Virus record (IMG/VR): IMGVR_UViG_3300027708_000013
Strand: one strand, 5' to 3'
DNA: 64,000 nucleotides
From: a virus
Lineage: Duplodnaviria; Caudoviricetes
Shown piece by piece: positions 17,487 through 48,621 of this stretch (its first letter is position 1; every line of letters starts with the position of its first letter). Below the pieces are notes generated by a model. The model had not been told where the DNA came from. It made no database searches and saw nothing but the letters and a program-made list of their open reading frames with translations. The translations under genes were made by a program, and so were the position numbers.

Positions 17487-17494
17487 TATTTATA
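17487..17494 (-). promoter_or_regulatory. T4-type late promoter TATAAATA (hsp20)
   Basis: Exact consensus. Confidence 0.65.
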
Positions 17495-21376: not shown

Positions 21377-21384
21377 TATTTATA
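21377..21384 (-). promoter_or_regulatory. T4-type late promoter TATAAATA
   Basis: Exact consensus immediately after a terminator. Confidence 0.7.
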
Positions 21385-35654: not shown

Positions 35655-36074
35655 TTAACCGCGTTTGCCTAGAGCACGGTTGGCCATACTGGATACTGTT
35701 TTTTCAGGTGCTGTTTTAACAGCTTCACCCTCTTCACCAGGTACCTCAACATCGCTGTCAACAGGATTGATGAAAACATACTTTTGCCCATTTTCATCGT
35801 CTTTGATATTGGCAACAATGCTTTTTACTGCTTCGTTGTGTTGTTTGGCTTTTTGCAGTGTTTCCAATGTGAATGCTTCTGCGCCAGGTTTACTGCGTAC
35901 CAGGTTGATCAGTGCTTCCACAGATATTTTTGGCACTGTGGCATGATCACTGCTGTACTGTAATTCTCTCAGTGTGTCAATCAATGCATCATTGGCCGCA
36001 TGGTCGGCGTCATCTTCAACAAAACCGGCTAGGCCATCTTCATTTAATCGACGGGCAAATTCTGTAAATCGCAT
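35655..36074 (-). CDS. putative internal head protein (MRFTEF...LNE leader)
   Basis: Leader resembling a T4 capsid-targeting sequence. Confidence 0.6.
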   Translation of the reverse strand: MRFTEFARRLNEDGLAGFVEDDADHAANDALIDTLRELQYSSDHATVPKISVEALINLVRSKPGAEAFTLETLQKAKQHNEAVKSIVANIKDDENGQKYVFINPVDSDVEVPGEEGEAVKTAPEKTVSSMANRALGKRG

Positions 36075-36766
36075 TAACGCTTTTCTCTGCCAAGTTCTTC
36101 TGGTCCACCAACTGCTGCATCAGTGCCATCAAATCCATCGCCCTCTGGAGCCGGAGCTTCTGGAGCAGGAGCCATACCCGAGTCAGGAGCCGGGGCACCC
36201 ATACCAGTGTCCATACCACCCATGCTCATGTCCGGAGCAGCTTCGCCAGTCAATGCACGGGCAGCACCGTCGGCCTGTTCACGACCAGTGCTGAGTTGTT
36301 GCCATAATTGTTGTAACAAAGGAGTAACTGTGCCTTTGAAACTTTCGGCCTGCTGTTCGCCAATTTGATCACGAATTGTATCTACCAAGGCCGGTAACTG
36401 CTCGTTTTGCATTTTACCAATTTTTTCCAACATGTCCTGTATCGAGTCAACCATGTCTTTGGCAGCTAATGTAGCTTCGGCCTTGGCCATTTCGCTTTCA
36501 CGCAACAGTACATGGCGATTTTCCACCATCCAGCGATTTAAACTTTCACGAACCATCAACAGTTCCATGTATTTGGGATTCTTTTCAGCTGTGTGTACAC
36601 CGTGTGTACGCTTGACAGCATTCAAGCTCTCTGTGATGCCGGTGGCCAATCGATAGGCTTTTGTAAATGTTAAACTGTCGTAGTCAATTTTGAAGCCAAA
36701 TCTGCTTTCAACTACTTGATTAATTCGTTTAGCTCTTGGCTGGTTGCTCATTTCTGATAATTTCAT
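36074..36766 (-). CDS. putative head scaffold/internal protein
   Basis: MKLSE leader, helical core, acidic G/A/P/M-rich tail; CTAAATA box at 36794-36800. Confidence 0.6.
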   Translation of the reverse strand: MKLSEMSNQPRAKRINQVVESRFGFKIDYDSLTFTKAYRLATGITESLNAVKRTHGVHTAEKNPKYMELLMVRESLNRWMVENRHVLLRESEMAKAEATLAAKDMVDSIQDMLEKIGKMQNEQLPALVDTIRDQIGEQQAESFKGTVTPLLQQLWQQLSTGREQADGAARALTGEAAPDMSMGGMDTGMGAPAPDSGMAPAPEAPAPEGDGFDGTDAAVGGPEELGREKR

Positions 36767-38899: not shown

Positions 38900-39994
38900 T
38901 TACAATCTTCCTTGAACATTTGCTGTGGAGAAAGCACTACGATCCACTAGTTTTATAAACCCACTGGCTGTGTCTATATTAAATCCTTCGCCTTTGGGTT
39001 GTCCGCCCACGGATTGCTCGATGTCTGGTACTTGACTATCTAATTGAGTCAATATGGCCAGTTTTAATTGCGTTACAGCCATGTAAACTTTGTGTAAATC
39101 TTCCAATATAGTTTTATTTTCTTCTGCGTTTACTATTTCAAACTGTGGACGGGTCAATTTACTTTGTATCCATGCACCATCCACTTCTTGTCCAGTAGCT
39201 TTGCGATTGTAGTATTGTTGTAATCGATCTTTTGAGGATTGAGTCAAGCTGCTTAAAAATGCATCACCACCTGCGGCAACAAATTTAGCCACAGCACGTT
39301 CAGCGGCTTTTTTTGCTGCGGTGGGTTCTTTCATCTTAAAGGCAGTGCCCATGTTGCCTGTGAACACTGTGATGTATTGATTGGTGCCAGCTAATCCGCC
39401 AAGTCCTGGCAACGTTTGACGACCTACTAAAGGACTGCTTTTAGACTTTTCTATATCAGTGCCGTAGCTGTGTACTGCCAATCCAACACTTCGGCCAGCT
39501 ATGTTTTTGCCAATGGGACTGTTAGCAACAACACTGTATGTAACACCATGTGGATTTGGTTTGAATACAAACTTGCCATCCACAGGTTCTAACGGCTCAC
39601 TCCACATGAGGTCACCTTGTACAAATCCTGCAAAGCCAGCAGGACATATACTGCCCACAGCATTAAACACTGATGCTAGTTTTTGTCCTACTTCCATGTT
39701 CTTGCCATGACCTTGATAAAACTTTAATAACTCTTCCGCACTGGTAACTTGTCCGCCTGGTTCGCCAATGTACTCTTTGTAGTTCATTGTGAATCGACCA
39801 TCCGCGGTTCTACGGCCAAATATAATGGCCGGCGATCCGTCCCATTTAATTGTAACAGTTTCGGGCTGTTTTACAGCACCTGTCATGCCGGCAATGGCAT
39901 CCAGTGCCGCCTTGCTACCTGCAAATATAAAATCCTCCGGATGCGGTGTTCTGGTACCTTCTGCTAACATGGTGATAAATTCTAATAAAATCAT
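38900..39994 (-). CDS. DUF6267-like protein with ligase-type KxDG nucleotidyltransferase motif
   Basis: TIKWDGSPAIIFG (motif I-like), VQGDLM (motif III-like), F.PN...Y.V; MILLEF..LAE leader. Confidence 0.6.
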   Translation of the reverse strand: MILLEFITMLAEGTRTPHPEDFIFAGSKAALDAIAGMTGAVKQPETVTIKWDGSPAIIFGRRTADGRFTMNYKEYIGEPGGQVTSAEELLKFYQGHGKNMEVGQKLASVFNAVGSICPAGFAGFVQGDLMWSEPLEPVDGKFVFKPNPHGVTYSVVANSPIGKNIAGRSVGLAVHSYGTDIEKSKSSPLVGRQTLPGLGGLAGTNQYITVFTGNMGTAFKMKEPTAAKKAAERAVAKFVAAGGDAFLSSLTQSSKDRLQQYYNRKATGQEVDGAWIQSKLTRPQFEIVNAEENKTILEDLHKVYMAVTQLKLAILTQLDSQVPDIEQSVGGQPKGEGFNIDTASGFIKLVDRSAFSTANVQGRL

Positions 39995-41382
39995 TGGAAA
40001 TATCCTTTGACCATGTCCAGTCCTTGTTGTATTTTTTCTCTATCACTATTGGCTCTTGCTACAGCAGCCGGTGTCGAGGCTTTATCACGCTTCTTACCAG
40101 CAATATCTATCTGTGCTTTTTCTTCGTAACGTTGCCAAAACCGGTTGATAAAATCTTGTGCATCAGCAAAGTTGGCAAAGTCGCCTTGTCCAAACATTCC
40201 GTTTGATTCACAGCTTTTAGCAAATCCTTTGACGCCATTCACCAGTCGACTTATTTTAACATTGTTGATGTCATTGCCGGGAAACTGTTTCAGCATTGGG
40301 TCAATCTTGGGATTGTCAATTCCCAACTGTTTTGCTTGATAAACAAATGTATCTAATATAAAAGTAGCAGGTTCTGTGGTCACAGTGACAACTTCTGTGC
40401 CTTTTTGTTTACTAAACGGCACATGTTGCCCGTCCACCACTTTTAACTGCACACCAGCGTGTTGAATACTTAGATCAAGTAGTTCGCCCAACACACTGAA
40501 CATGTTGCCGGTCAGCAGGCCTTTGACTCCACGCTCAGGAGTTACACGGGCGGCACCCCACTTTTCCAAACGTTCCGGGTGCCACATGAAATCTATTTGT
40601 ACAAAATCATTGGCGCCAATTTGGAATGTAGGGTGTCCTGGTTTTTCGCCAACTTCAACATAACTTAATCCTGTGTTAATGAAGTCATCGGCCAACTTGT
40701 TCCAATATGTTGTAAACTGTGTATAGCCTTGACCTGCGGCTTCTGGTGCAATCATTTGTAAATCAATGTCGCCATAGACTTTTTCTGGATCTTCAATGGT
40801 GTCTTGTTCGTGGTAAGCACTGGAACCTGTGGGACGTCCACGACGTATTTGGCCCACTTGTGCAGCATACTTGGCATTAAACTCAGCAACAAAACGATCC
40901 ACCACCTTGAGTGCTACTGCTACAATCCTGGGGTGTAGCACAGTGCCCTGTGTTTTAATCGAGTCCCATCCACCTTCCTGAATCGGCTCCCATGTCATGG
41001 GCTTGGCACCGCGGGCAATGGGCTTGAATCCATGTCTTTTATACAATCTAGTCAATGAGGCTGAACTTATTCTGCCGTGGCTCCAGGGATACAGTGTCAA
41101 TCTAATGTTGGATTCCTGTGCCTGTCGTTGCAGTTCCCGTATGGCTCTACTGCCCACACCTTGACGTTGTTCGGGTCCAGCCATGATCCAGTCTATTTCC
41201 ACTGTGCGGGCATCGGCACCGGGTTTGAGTTTGAATGCAGCAAAAGTTTGTTCTTCGCCTGACCCCCACACCATGACTCGATCTGCTTGGCCGTAGGGCC
41301 ATTCGGGATATCGACTGTACACTTGGTCAATACAAGACTGTGCAGGCGAAATTGATTCAACGATGACTTCACGTATTTTCAT
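39991..41382 (-). CDS. GNAT acetyltransferase fused to a Pol-beta-type nucleotidyltransferase domain
   Basis: GNAT: QRQGVGSRAI...LYKRHGF. NTase: TGSS...YGDIDL, later VQIDF. Confidence 0.6.
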   Translation of the reverse strand: MKIREVIVESISPAQSCIDQVYSRYPEWPYGQADRVMVWGSGEEQTFAAFKLKPGADARTVEIDWIMAGPEQRQGVGSRAIRELQRQAQESNIRLTLYPWSHGRISSASLTRLYKRHGFKPIARGAKPMTWEPIQEGGWDSIKTQGTVLHPRIVAVALKVVDRFVAEFNAKYAAQVGQIRRGRPTGSSAYHEQDTIEDPEKVYGDIDLQMIAPEAAGQGYTQFTTYWNKLADDFINTGLSYVEVGEKPGHPTFQIGANDFVQIDFMWHPERLEKWGAARVTPERGVKGLLTGNMFSVLGELLDLSIQHAGVQLKVVDGQHVPFSKQKGTEVVTVTTEPATFILDTFVYQAKQLGIDNPKIDPMLKQFPGNDINNVKISRLVNGVKGFAKSCESNGMFGQGDFANFADAQDFINRFWQRYEEKAQIDIAGKKRDKASTPAAVARANSDREKIQQGLDMVKGYFQ

Positions 41383-42242
41383 CGCAATCTATTGTTCCAA
41401 TGACGTAACCACTCAGTGGGATGAACACTGGCAGCACTTTCGGGCAGTTGTAAATTTCTCTGTGCAAAATTATCACGTGCATCTTTTAATTTTGCTTCAC
41501 GTTGCGGGTCATTTCTCAATGCTGACACTGTGTTCTTTACTGATGCTAGATCTCTACTATTGTGTCCCGGTCCCAGCAGTATTTCAGCTATGTTGTTGAA
41601 GTCATTGGTTATTAAATCATTGGTTTGACGATTGGACAAGCCCGAGCGCCAGTCAAATTTAACTCCCCCGGGAAAGTCAGCAGTGCGAATGACCTTGCCT
41701 ATGCTGTTGTAAAGTATGGCACGATCTGCGGCTTTGAAGTCTTCACCATCTGCATAGCCTGTCACCTGTTTGCTGAATTCCAAATCGGGCATGAACATGA
41801 AATCTGCCTGCACAAAACCATTTGCGACATTGCCACTGATGGGAGTTCTAAAGTGTATCTGTGATCCGGCATTTTTGATCCAGCCACCCGAAAATCCAGG
41901 ATCTTTTTTCGTTTTGTTGGCCGGACGATTGAGTATTTCTGCTGCGGGTATTTTTTGCTGTTGGCACCAACGTGTCAACACCTGCATCACTGCATCATTG
42001 TTGATCACAGTGGCATCTATGCCAAGGTCCAAGTCACCCAGGCTGGTGGTTCCGGCTCTGGGACGCTTGAGACTGCCTAGTTCATTGCCACGCAGGTTCA
42101 ATCCTGTGATCTTTTCCAGCCAGGTCACTGTGGCAGGCACATCAGCTACATTGATACGTTGTGTAAGTGGGCGACCTTGATCATCTTTGAATACATTGCC
42201 ACCTAGTCCTGCGGCTTCGTTGCCGCCTTCTAGTAATATCAT
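41379..42242 (-). CDS. Pol-beta-type nucleotidyltransferase-like protein
   Basis: LGS-x11-DLD (LGSLKRPRAGTTSLGDLDL), third Asp in VQADFM; MILLE|GGN leader. Confidence 0.6.
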   Translation of the reverse strand: MILLEGGNEAAGLGGNVFKDDQGRPLTQRINVADVPATVTWLEKITGLNLRGNELGSLKRPRAGTTSLGDLDLGIDATVINNDAVMQVLTRWCQQQKIPAAEILNRPANKTKKDPGFSGGWIKNAGSQIHFRTPISGNVANGFVQADFMFMPDLEFSKQVTGYADGEDFKAADRAILYNSIGKVIRTADFPGGVKFDWRSGLSNRQTNDLITNDFNNIAEILLGPGHNSRDLASVKNTVSALRNDPQREAKLKDARDNFAQRNLQLPESAASVHPTEWLRHWNNRLR

Positions 42243-43681
42243 TTTGTTTTATTTAACAGCAGAGCTGAAAAATCCTTTGATGATTCTGCCATTGCGGGTT
42301 TAGAGTTTGTTCCAGCAGTCGCTGGTGGTTTGTAATTTACATTAGTAGATGTATTTTTGGCATTAGTATACGGCAGAGTAGTGACCTGAGGCATTGGGCT
42401 AGTAGGCACATTGTATGTAGGTTTTGCATAACCAGTAGGTCGTTGACCATAGTTCGGTGTTGCAGTTGTAGCTTGTTTCGTGTAGGGCAATCGTTGCGGG
42501 GCAGATACTGCTGGTAGTTGTGCGATATTTTTATTATTTGGATTAGCTCTATGAACTTGTCCGGTAGGAGTAGTGGTTGTTTGACCCCCGGTGGCCGAGG
42601 TTGCATTATTAGGCAATCTTGTATATGCTGTATCTACTGGGCCCATATTTTTACTCGGCATTTGAGGCATTGTGGTTGCTTGAGACTGTTGTTGAGCACG
42701 TTGTTGTGCTTGTGCTGGTCGTGCCGGTTGTGCCGGTTGTGATGACGCTGGTTGTGCCTGTGCTGGCGCTGGTTGTGCCACCGCTGGTTGTGCCTGTGCT
42801 GGTTGTGCTGGCGCTGGTTGTGCCTGTGCTGGTTGTGCCTGTGCTGGTGCATTCGGATCGTTGGGAAATCTGTTATCCACCGGCGGAGTTTTTGTAGTTA
42901 CCGGCGGAGCTACTAGTTGTTTTGCCTGTGTTGGTCTATTGGGACTACGATAAGACTGATCGGCTACGTTACCGATTCCAGCAAAGGCTGCCCGATTAAC
43001 TGCGTCGGCGGCTCCTTTTGCTACATTGCCAACAGCATTGCCAATTTTAGTACCTAGGCTGTCGGTACTTTGGGGTGTTGTTGCTTGAGTTGCTTGAGCT
43101 TGAGTTTGAGCTTGGGCTCCTCTTGCTTGAGCCAATTGTGCTTGCAAACCGCTGATGGCAGTTTTATGTTGATCGATTTGATTTTCAATTGATGCAACAT
43201 CTACCCCTGCACCCGAGGCCGAAGTGTTAGATGCAGTTGCGGTGGGTTGTGCAACAGGATCTTGTTTAAAAACTTTACCTAATTTATCTGCTGGCTCCCC
43301 ACCTACAGCGTTGGCTCCAGTGTTGAATCCCTTTGAGGCAGCACGAGCAACACCGGTGGTGGCACCTCCGGCCACAGCACCAGCTCCACCGGCGACATCT
43401 CCGGCCACTGTTGCGGCTGCTTTTCCTAGACCTTTTGCTCCGCTTTTAACAGCATTGTAGGCACCGGCCACTGGTCTGGCCACCAATTGATTGCCAAGTG
43501 CTTTACCAGCACCACCAATGGCACTGGCGGCACCTGCCACAGCATCGCCAGTTTTGTTTACGTTCTTAGTAAACTTTTGAGCACCCTTGGTTATTTTTTT
43601 AGCACCTTTTTGGATATCATTAAACCCAAACTCATCTAATTGCTGTTCTGTTACAATGTCATTAATCTTCACGATTTTCAC
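42239..43681 (-). CDS. low-complexity A/Q/P/T-rich protein, probably packaged
   Basis: MKIVKINDIVTEQQLDE leader; G/A-rich amphipathic N-half; AQP repeats. Confidence 0.7.
   Translation of the reverse strand: MKIVKINDIVTEQQLDEFGFNDIQKGAKKITKGAQKFTKNVNKTGDAVAGAASAIGGAGKALGNQLVARPVAGAYNAVKSGAKGLGKAAATVAGDVAGGAGAVAGGATTGVARAASKGFNTGANAVGGEPADKLGKVFKQDPVAQPTATASNTSASGAGVDVASIENQIDQHKTAISGLQAQLAQARGAQAQTQAQATQATTPQSTDSLGTKIGNAVGNVAKGAADAVNRAAFAGIGNVADQSYRSPNRPTQAKQLVAPPVTTKTPPVDNRFPNDPNAPAQAQPAQAQPAPAQPAQAQPAVAQPAPAQAQPASSQPAQPARPAQAQQRAQQQSQATTMPQMPSKNMGPVDTAYTRLPNNATSATGGQTTTTPTGQVHRANPNNKNIAQLPAVSAPQRLPYTKQATTATPNYGQRPTGYAKPTYNVPTSPMPQVTTLPYTNAKNTSTNVNYKPPATAGTNSKPAMAESSKDFSALLLNKTK
42705..42850 (-). 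repeat. imperfect tandem AQP/PAQ-coding repeats
   Basis: ctggttgtgcctgtgctgg recurs several times on the plus strand. Confidence 0.85.
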
Positions 43682-43931: not shown

Positions 43932-43970
43932 TTTATGTTATATTTATATGGATTTAAAGTAATAAAGGTT

Positions 43971-48539: not shown

Positions 48540-48621
48540 CTTTTAAATCTCCTTAAATTTTTAGTGTAATTGACTTACGACTCTTAACTGTATTTATACA
48601 TTTGGTATTTTATCAAATGGT

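Follow-up and report, generated by a model that had tools for sequence, protein, structure and literature searches.

A 64,000-nucleotide stretch of the IMG/VR virus record IMGVR_UViG_3300027708_000013 (Duplodnaviria; Caudoviricetes), hereafter the window, carries three back-to-back minus-strand open reading frames (ORFs), late genes that we read as a nucleic-acid fill-and-seal repair set, packaged in the phage head and trimmed by a head protease. From upstream to downstream these are ORF3 (41379..42242), ORF2 (39991..41382) and ORF1 (38900..39994), at exactly the coordinates given in an initial annotation that had been made from the sequence alone. ORF3 (287 aa) is a predicted minimal family-X-polymerase-like nucleotidyltransferase (NTase) of the Pol-beta fold. 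ORF2 (463 aa) combines an N-terminal GNAT cassette with a second NTase domain, ORF2C, and ORF1 (364 aa), a member of DUF6267, is a putative divergent covalent (lysine) nucleotidyltransferase of RNA-ligase type. Catalysis, packaging, cleavage and substrate are what we infer, and we give the reading as a whole an even chance of being correct. Successive genes of the operon overlap by 4 nt (ATGA; 42239-42242, 41379-41382 and 39991-39994), and ORF3, ORF2 and ORF1 are translationally coupled.

Polymerase X-like and ligase-like domains and their linkage

ORF3 carries the motif G56-S57 (42072-42077), followed after 12 residues by D70-L-D72 (42027-42035), and a third Asp, D147 (41802-41804), within VQADFMF. 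The residues G56, G69, D70, D72 and D147 are invariant in the ORF3 family (alignment A2), with family alignments reaching down to 26-36% identity. No Pfam or PHROG family matched ORF3, and the Pfam families DNA_pol_B_palm and DNA_pol_B_thumb matched neither ORF3 nor ORF2 nor any member of A2 or of A5, the alignment of the ORF2C family; profile searches with A2, A3 and A5 against PDB sequences returned nothing meaningful. When the AlphaFold2 model of ORF3 (predicted local distance difference test, pLDDT, 86.6) was compared with the PDB by Foldseek, all 50 of the 50 best matches were family-X DNA polymerases. The exhaustive aligner VIA found 35 PDB chains with Z >= 5, the leading ones all being Pol-beta-fold NTases, and its top eight rows comprised Pol beta, Leishmania Pol beta, Pol lambda, TdT, Thermus PolX and African swine fever virus (ASFV) Pol X. 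Pol beta aligned with Z 9.2 (root-mean-square deviation 3.3, 162 aa), Pol lambda, TdT and Thermus PolX (TthPolX) with Z 8.3-8.4, and ASFV Pol X with Z 7.9. In BFVD, gp65 of Agrobacterium phage Atu_ph07 came first, followed by PolX proteins of nucleocytoplasmic large DNA viruses (NCLDV). Because the family-X alignments span both palm and thumb (ORF3 residues 19-235), we take the model to represent a minimal Pol-X-like enzyme, which by sequence lies outside the Pfam PolX families; its chain, like that of ASFV Pol X, leaves no space for either fingers or an 8-kDa domain.

The initial annotation had placed both NTases in the Pol-beta superfamily, which the motifs and the palm fold of ORF3 bear out, and had likened them to CCA-adding, AMPylating-toxin and cGAS-like enzymes. 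We rank these identities low because such folds align over ~90 residues only; terminal uridylyltransferases (TUTases), CD-NTases, CCA enzymes, MenT and ANT did so with Z <= 7.3. The motifs quoted in that annotation for the three ORFs are all present, with one correction, the spacing GS-x11-DLD being in fact GS-x12-DLD, and the invariance of the NTase and KWDG residues in their families shows that these do not occur by chance.

ORF2C (residues 137-463; 39991..40974) begins with G137GW directly after PIQE136 and shows the corresponding residues G186-S187 (40822-40827), D205-I-D207 (40762-40770) and D264 (40591-40593). Among close homologues, these C-terminal ~330 residues are 70-87% identical, and in A5 (44 sequences, 26-58% identity) E136, G137, G138, G186, S187, D205, D207 and D264 are invariant. 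An hhalign comparison of A5 with A2 (probability 75%, E 2.5e-5, 180 columns) brought E/GG, GS, GDxD and VQxDxM into register, the slash here and below marking the junction after Glu. We thus regard ORF2C, on the strength of these profiles, as a paralogue of ORF3 with a predicted Pol-beta fold. Clusters of NTP_transf_2, DNA_pol_B_palm and NCLDV PolX are among its structural neighbours in the ESM-Atlas.

The N-terminal part of ORF2 (40975..41382) consists of the leader MKIREVIVE (residues 1-9) and the cassette (residues ~10-136) that ends in PIQE136. The GNAT domain that had been proposed here is real, though marginal: Pfam Acetyltransf_1 (PF00583; E 4.8e-4) matches with 20.8 bits, just above its cut-off of 20.7, and GNATs are the top two matches among PDB sequences (E 0.13). 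The cassette contains motif A, QRQGVGS, which is kept in GNAT-bearing homologues, as well as LYKRHGF, and we consider it a small GNAT acetyltransferase. It is present in only ~7 of 120 close ORF2C homologues, most of which are standalone proteins of ~338 aa, and some carry unrelated cassettes at the same position (another NTase, a different GNAT or unknown domains). The distribution among homologues identifies the GNAT as a rare inserted cassette.

ORF1 matched Pfam DUF6267 (PF19782) with E 2.8e-29, a family of which our literature search found no mention. DUF6267 matched 299 phage records, most of them from marine cyanophages, and metagenomes from lakes and the ocean contain it in abundance. 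In an alignment of 27 DUF6267 sequences (A4, down to 34% identity), K50, W51, D52 and G53 of the KWDG motif (motif I, 39836-39847) are invariant, as are R62, D128, H175, E336, G337, K348 and R352. Candidate motifs III (D128 of Q126-G-D128, GDLMW; 39611-39613), IIIa (F144), IV (E336-G337; 38987-38989 for E336) and V (K348/R352; K348 at 38951-38953) are all invariant. The AlphaFold2 model (pLDDT 85.9) shows a beta-rich core that is interrupted by a helical module (residues 225-319; 39038-39322). Its VIA matches include NgrRnl (Z 7.2, 188 aa), REL1 (6.7), Trl1 (6.2), T4 Rnl1 and Rnl2 (both 6.1) and DNA ligases (Z 5.0-5.8), each aligned over 160-195 aa. Altogether, ~20 of the 50 top rows are RNA or DNA ligases, aligned over 153-195 residues with Z 4.9-7.2, which, being below 8, we took as support only in combination with the motifs; in the other rows, helical bundles align with the insert. 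In AFDB, ORF1 matched an 'RNA ligase domain-containing protein' (E 3e-3).

The ends of the alignments place K50 and K348 level with the lysines of motifs I and V in Rnl2, REL1 and NgrRnl. Neither an oligonucleotide/oligosaccharide-binding (OB) domain nor motif VI was found in ORF1, in which K348 is followed by ~15 residues (one helix), and there was no match to PF01068 in ORF1 nor of Pfam RNA_ligase to DUF6267. Inteins typically sit in catalytic motifs, and P0232, a fused ORF3-like/DUF6267 protein, carries one (PF14890, E 3.4e-8) directly after KWDG. On the model, with its modest Z scores, we read ORF1 and DUF6267 as divergent RNA-ligase-type lysine adenylyltransferases. Structure prediction with fold search thus returned an NTase of the family-X type for ORF3 and a ligase-type fold for ORF1, consistent with the initial annotation, which had assigned the KWDG protein to the covalent ligase/capping enzymes. 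We do not claim homology between ORF1 and ORF2 or ORF3, since hhalign of DUF6267 against the NTase families aligned only a short GFVQxDxMW strand.

The three domains recur together. A single chain of 990 aa (P0427) contains DUF6267, then ORF2C behind PIDE/GGW, then an ORF3-like domain behind LITE/GGN; in P0168, P0194 and P0232 an ORF3-like domain is fused to DUF6267, and P0395 unites an ORF3-like domain, a KxDG domain, an HxGH transferase and ORF2C. The helicase encoded in the window is 77% identical to that of the IMG/VR contigs G006 (354 kb) and G008, which would make them the nearest lineage reached for the window phage, and the operon of G006 has the same gene order as the window without the GNAT. 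In contig G007, ORF2C, an ORF3-like gene and a DUF6267-cytidylyltransferase fusion form a short cluster whose order differs from that of the window. The ORF3 homologue gp65 of Atu_ph07 (hhalign against the ORF3 family 99.4%, E 6e-21) adjoins gp66, which has a KxDG motif and weakly matches RNA_ligase. Because the three domains are fused in single chains in other phages and syntenic in relatives, we expect them to work together. The coupling of a polymerase-like NTase with a ligase is a recognised hallmark of nucleic-acid end repair. The initial annotation had suggested a kit that either modifies host targets or repairs nucleic acids; the ligase-NTase fusions favour fill-and-seal repair and not the nucleotidylation of host proteins.

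Leaders, E/G junctions and proposed packaging

The domains of the trio are preceded by a common junction. The leader of ORF3 is MILLE/GG (residues 1-5, 42228-42242) and that of ORF1 is MILLEFITMLAE/G (residues 1-12, 39959-39994). Across 189 ORF2C domain starts, Glu directly precedes GG in 188, and I, L or V occupies position P3 in 185. Of these starts, 130 lie behind a leader of 6-16 aa, which is exactly 9 aa long in 99 of them (MKIxDIIxE type), and the remaining 59 are internal, behind unrelated domains. Similarly, [ILV]-x-E/G is found at ~98% of starts in the ORF3 family (typical leader MxLxE/GGN) and at 95 of 95 DUF6267 starts of the jumbo clade (leader MxLLEFIxxLTE/G). The mirroring of LLE/GGN by IQE/GGW that had been noticed in the window is therefore real and general, an instance of a near-universal [ILV]-x-E/G boundary. 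This boundary matches the cleavage consensus of T4 gp21, the leaders resemble the T4 capsid-targeting sequence, and the junction consensus fits T4-type head-protease processing, the initial annotation having suggested cleavage by the head protease. The leaders of ORF3 and ORF1 are disordered in the AlphaFold2 models.

The same type of junction links domains in polyproteins of up to 1,708 aa that contain ORF2C or DUF6267 (P0365, P0372, P0376, P0395 and ESM-Atlas clusters). The partners are GH19 lysozyme, amidoligase, HExxH peptidase-like, HxGH transferase and Cu/Zn superoxide dismutase domains, joined by h-x-E/G linkers such as GVAE/GG. In P0365, ORF2C is joined to a GH19 lysozyme-like domain, and DUF6267 is joined to SodC (Cu/Zn superoxide dismutase) in an ESM-Atlas cluster; both fusions look like cargo stringing.

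Data for virions are available from Atu_ph07, in which gp65 was identified by electrospray tandem mass spectrometry (ESI-MS/MS) at 36.8% coverage from 10 unique peptides (PMC6102473 Table S5), and the virion proteome contains gp55-65, including gp63, a fusion of a GNAT with an ADP-ribosyltransferase (ART)-like domain (PMC6102473). Within this block (L085, 7558-12390), gp58-63 are six tandem paralogues with the ART-like motifs YRG...NSIFC...Y(V/I)(V/I)FP and leaders of the MRWHQLxE, MKWHQLTE or MRLFQLLE type; gp63 has an extra N-terminal GNAT that is similar to that of ORF2 (E 4e-4), and all six of the six were found in virions by mass spectrometry (PMC6102473). A gp21-type protease (PF03420, Peptidase_S77) is encoded in contigs G007 and G009 (E ~1e-27) and in Atu_ph07, and PF03420 was not found in five smaller related fragments. 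Packaging and cleavage at E136/G137 are thus well motivated, and we infer both for the window phage.

Proposed mechanism and alternative readings

Because the leaders are of the T4 capsid-targeting type, we propose that each protein is made with a short leader ending in [IL]-x-E/G and loaded into the prohead, where a gp21-type head protease would trim the leaders, and that the proteins are ejected along with the DNA. The protease would also sever the GNAT cassette from the NTase at IQE136/G137, and cleavage after Glu would yield new N-termini, giving peptides that begin with GGWDSIK, GGNEAAGLGGNVFK and GTRTPHPEDFIFAGSK. ORF3 and ORF2C may add nucleotides at 3'-OH ends or in gaps by means of their GS / DxD / D metal site, and ORF1 would self-adenylylate on K50 of KWDG and then seal the resulting nick like an RNA-ligase-type ligase.

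DNA and RNA are about equally likely as the substrate. [quoted passage not shown] The RNA ligases that are the nearest folds of ORF1, its lack of an OB domain and the presence of a canonical ATP-dependent DNA ligase in the nearest lineage point to RNA, for which we also count that no Rnl2-type RNA ligase was found in that lineage. A mixed mode is possible: DNA breaks would first receive ribonucleotides, and sealing of the 3'-ribo nick would follow. Bacterial non-homologous end joining (NHEJ) uses ribonucleotides at breaks and the sealing of 3'-ribo nicks. A bolder reading, which we put forward tentatively and regard as possible, if doubtful, holds that DUF6267 is a new lysine-adenylyl ligase branch with a permuted architecture and that, together with two new mini-Pol-X-like families, it makes up a machine for break repair which the virions of giant and marine phages deliver. 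Such a machine would patch the genome on entry, or damaged RNA, ahead of the expression of any phage gene, possibly with ribonucleotides at breaks and 3'-ribo nick sealing.

Several observations weigh against the packaged fill-and-seal set. For the enzymes, the ESM-Atlas model of ORF2C is of low confidence (pLDDT 0.61); the ligase-fold match of ORF1 is modest (Z <= 7.2) and was seen by the exhaustive aligner only, with nothing below E 0.3 in the Foldseek search of the PDB; and motifs III-V of ORF1 were set by inspection and the register of alignment ends, not by residue-level superposition. A complex prediction for mature ORF1 and ORF3 scored 0.00 and, having been run without controls, is uninformative either way, and hhalign found no relation between DUF6267 and Atu_ph07 gp66, so that gp66 is not detectably a DUF6267 protein. 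The points that concern packaging also favour an alternative in which the same enzymes with the same chemistry act unpackaged, late in the infected cytoplasm (gap or nick repair, processing of replication intermediates, RNA repair), and the h-x-E-G(G) element serves as a structural or catalytic N-terminal element or as a signal for another purpose. The conserved E-G-G could indeed belong to the fold instead of a cleavage site, and the ORF3 leader, at 5 aa, is short for a targeting sequence. The trio adjoins primase and helicase genes both in the window and in Atu_ph07, whose ligase-like gp66 was not detected in virions (PMC6102473). The DUF6267 protein of T4-like cyanophages (Syn9 gp183) is leaderless and lies in a replication module beside the gp41 helicase and UvsX, so that membership of the family does not in itself make a protein cargo. 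A search of the nearest lineage, G006 and G008, found no gp21-type protease, with the gp23 gene of G006 cut by the contig end. We nevertheless consider an unpackaged role rather unlikely, since [ILV]-x-E/G stands before three unrelated kinds of fold (ligase, Pol-beta and other cassettes) and is kept at the 59 internal junctions with unrelated upstream domains, the leaders are unstructured in the models, gp65 and its neighbours in gp55-65 of Atu_ph07 are virion proteins, and the GH19 and SodC fusions resemble cargo stringing. As a separate observation, CheckV puts the completeness of G006 (IMGVR_UViG_3300043418_000072) at 100%, although the contig stops within the gp23-like major capsid gene (353941-354096); its head-gene block, possibly including the protease, is therefore incomplete.

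Packaging by itself would also suit injected effectors that modify the host, with the NTases nucleotidylylating host proteins or small molecules or making or capping nucleotide signals, the KxDG protein AMPylating and the GNAT acetylating host proteins. Head-delivered polyvalent phage proteins often combine GNAT, ART and Pol-beta NTase domains that are predicted to act on proteins (PMC5512222), the NTase of Atu_ph07 lies beside the GNAT and ART-like fusion and the array of ART-like paralogues with similar leaders, and the cassette in front of ORF2C is hypervariable. We judge such effectors unlikely, as the match of ORF3 to family X covers palm and thumb (150-180 aa), whereas MenT, ANT, CD-NTases and LnuA align over ~90 aa with lower Z, and the repeated fusion and synteny with a ligase-fold enzyme is the end-repair signature also seen in PgVPolX (PMC5537341) and RlaP. 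Finally, the unusually high conservation of ORF2C (70-87% identity), as is often seen in structural proteins, would fit internal head or scaffold proteins that derive from enzymes and are catalytically dead. This is highly improbable, given that the metal- and nucleotide-binding residues are invariant across 26-58% identity and that an intein is inserted at KWDG.

Genomic context and comparable systems

The first large gene of the operon (42239..43681, minus strand) encodes a 480-aa Ala/Gln/Pro-rich low-complexity protein with the leader MKIVKINDIVTE and overlaps ORF3 by 4 nt. It has a weak PHROG tape-measure match, and its slot in the closest relative is occupied by a low-complexity protein of 808 aa (L121:814-3240) that includes a LysM-like stretch, GESLSQIAKANGVSVEELQAANPEI; the product could be an ejection protein or one that contacts the cell wall. 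Just 5' of the operon, on its coding strand, lies the T4-late-promoter-like octamer TATAAATA (43941..43948). The window contains 7 such octamers where 3.5 are expected, a count that is not significant alone, and 5 of the 7 are located directly upstream of minus-strand gene starts (592-599, 17487-17494, 21377-21384, 43941-43948 and 48591-48598), a placement that suggests T4-type late promoters. Just downstream of the trio, a 230-aa protein starting with MKLSEM (36074-36766, minus strand) matched PHROG 14154, 'virion structural protein' (E 5.9e-11), and fits a virion-protein neighbourhood.

The window is part of an uncultured giant-phage contig, and contigs with the ORF2 protein reach 340,958 bp. 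Other genes of the window encode a DnaB-type helicase, a primase, a ribonucleotide reductase and a second helicase. Searches of 50,697 phage records with the trio region by blastn and with ORF2 by tblastn returned no match, ORF3 gave a weak match in Atu_ph07 only, and PADLOC found nothing.

In Synechococcus phage Syn9, a cyanophage, the DUF6267 protein gp183 has KYDG and no leader, and its gene adjoins two 'cytidyltransferase' genes, with gp41 helicase and UvsX nearby (locus L081, 4929-8632). Cyanomyoviruses have been reported to lack a homologue of the gp30 DNA ligase (PMC2984593), and the leaderless DUF6267 of T4-like cyanophages is a candidate for the ligase that these phages have long seemed to miss. 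G006 and G008 encode a canonical ATP-dependent DNA ligase, which rules out DUF6267 as the only DNA ligase in the phage clade of the window.

The initial annotation knew of no characterised system like this, which was too strong, because ASFV Pol X with its ligase, the PolX-ligase fusion of Phaeocystis globosa virus and RlaP with RNA ligase are functional analogues. ASFV Pol X (174 aa) is, like ORF3, composed of palm and thumb and lacks both fingers and an 8-kDa domain. The alignment with ORF3 takes in 150 of the 176 residues of 5hr9 (Z 7.9), and ASFV, likewise a large DNA virus, couples its family-X enzyme to a ligase, for viral base-excision repair. We take the ASFV repair enzymes to be packaged in the virion. 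The two systems differ in that ASFV Pol X has no detectable sequence similarity to ORF3, that the ASFV ligase is a DNA ligase whereas DUF6267 is RNA-ligase-like and lacks an OB domain, and that the phage has two paralogous NTases and a bacterial host. PgVPolX of Phaeocystis globosa virus unites a PolX core and an NAD+-dependent ligase domain in one polypeptide that was shown to fill and seal gaps (PMC5537341), an architecture analogous to that of P0427, P0168 and P0194. Its ligase domain is homologous to canonical NAD+ ligases and its PolX can be identified from the sequence, whereas both partners here belong to unrecognised families and the enzymes of the window are encoded by separate genes with head-protease-type junctions.

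RlaP (PF10127) is likewise a Pol-beta-fold NTase, genomically coupled to an ATP-grasp-type RNA ligase in bacterial and phage RNA repair, and adds 1-2 nucleoside monophosphates (NMP) to damaged RNA 3' ends before ligation (bioRxiv 10.64898/2025.12.29.696909; PMC7824862). In contrast, ORF3 has a Pol-X-type thumb, and no association with head leaders has been described for RlaP. RlaP identity for ORF3 or ORF2C was rejected, as none of 69 A2 and A5 family members matched PF10127 at E <= 1. T4 Rnl2, Trypanosoma brucei REL1 and Naegleria NgrRnl share with ORF1 a KxDG fold without an OB domain (Z 6.1-7.2 over 172-188 aa). DUF6267 differs from them by a ~95-aa helical module between motifs IIIa and IV, where the ligases have a terminal accessory domain, by an Asp in motif III instead of the ligase Glu, by a short spacing between motifs IV and V and by an extra invariant N-terminal R-x-x-H-x-E-D.

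With regard to packaging, T4 IPI-III and Alt are cargo proteins with a capsid-targeting sequence that gp21 cuts after (I/L)-x-E. Their leaders, M-K-x-x-(E/D)-h-h-x-E, compare with MKIREVIVE, MKIFEILRE/GGW and MILLEFITMLAE/G. Unlike these proteins, the cargo proposed here is polymerase-like and ligase-like, and its putative site is reused at internal junctions to give polyproteins. The trio is thus a variant of viral PolX-plus-ligase repair and of T4-type head cargo that is assembled from three uncharacterised families.

If confirmed, these findings would provide a function for the widespread phage family DUF6267, define two new families of Pol-X-like enzymes and make DUF6267 a candidate for the ligase believed to be missing from cyanomyoviruses. 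In T4-related giant phages, the [ILV]-x-E/G boundary rule would allow polyprotein cargo that is processed by the head protease to be predicted. The pairing of a mini polymerase X with a ligase, as in ASFV and algal giant viruses, would extend to phages, apparently as a pre-made cargo of the capsid.

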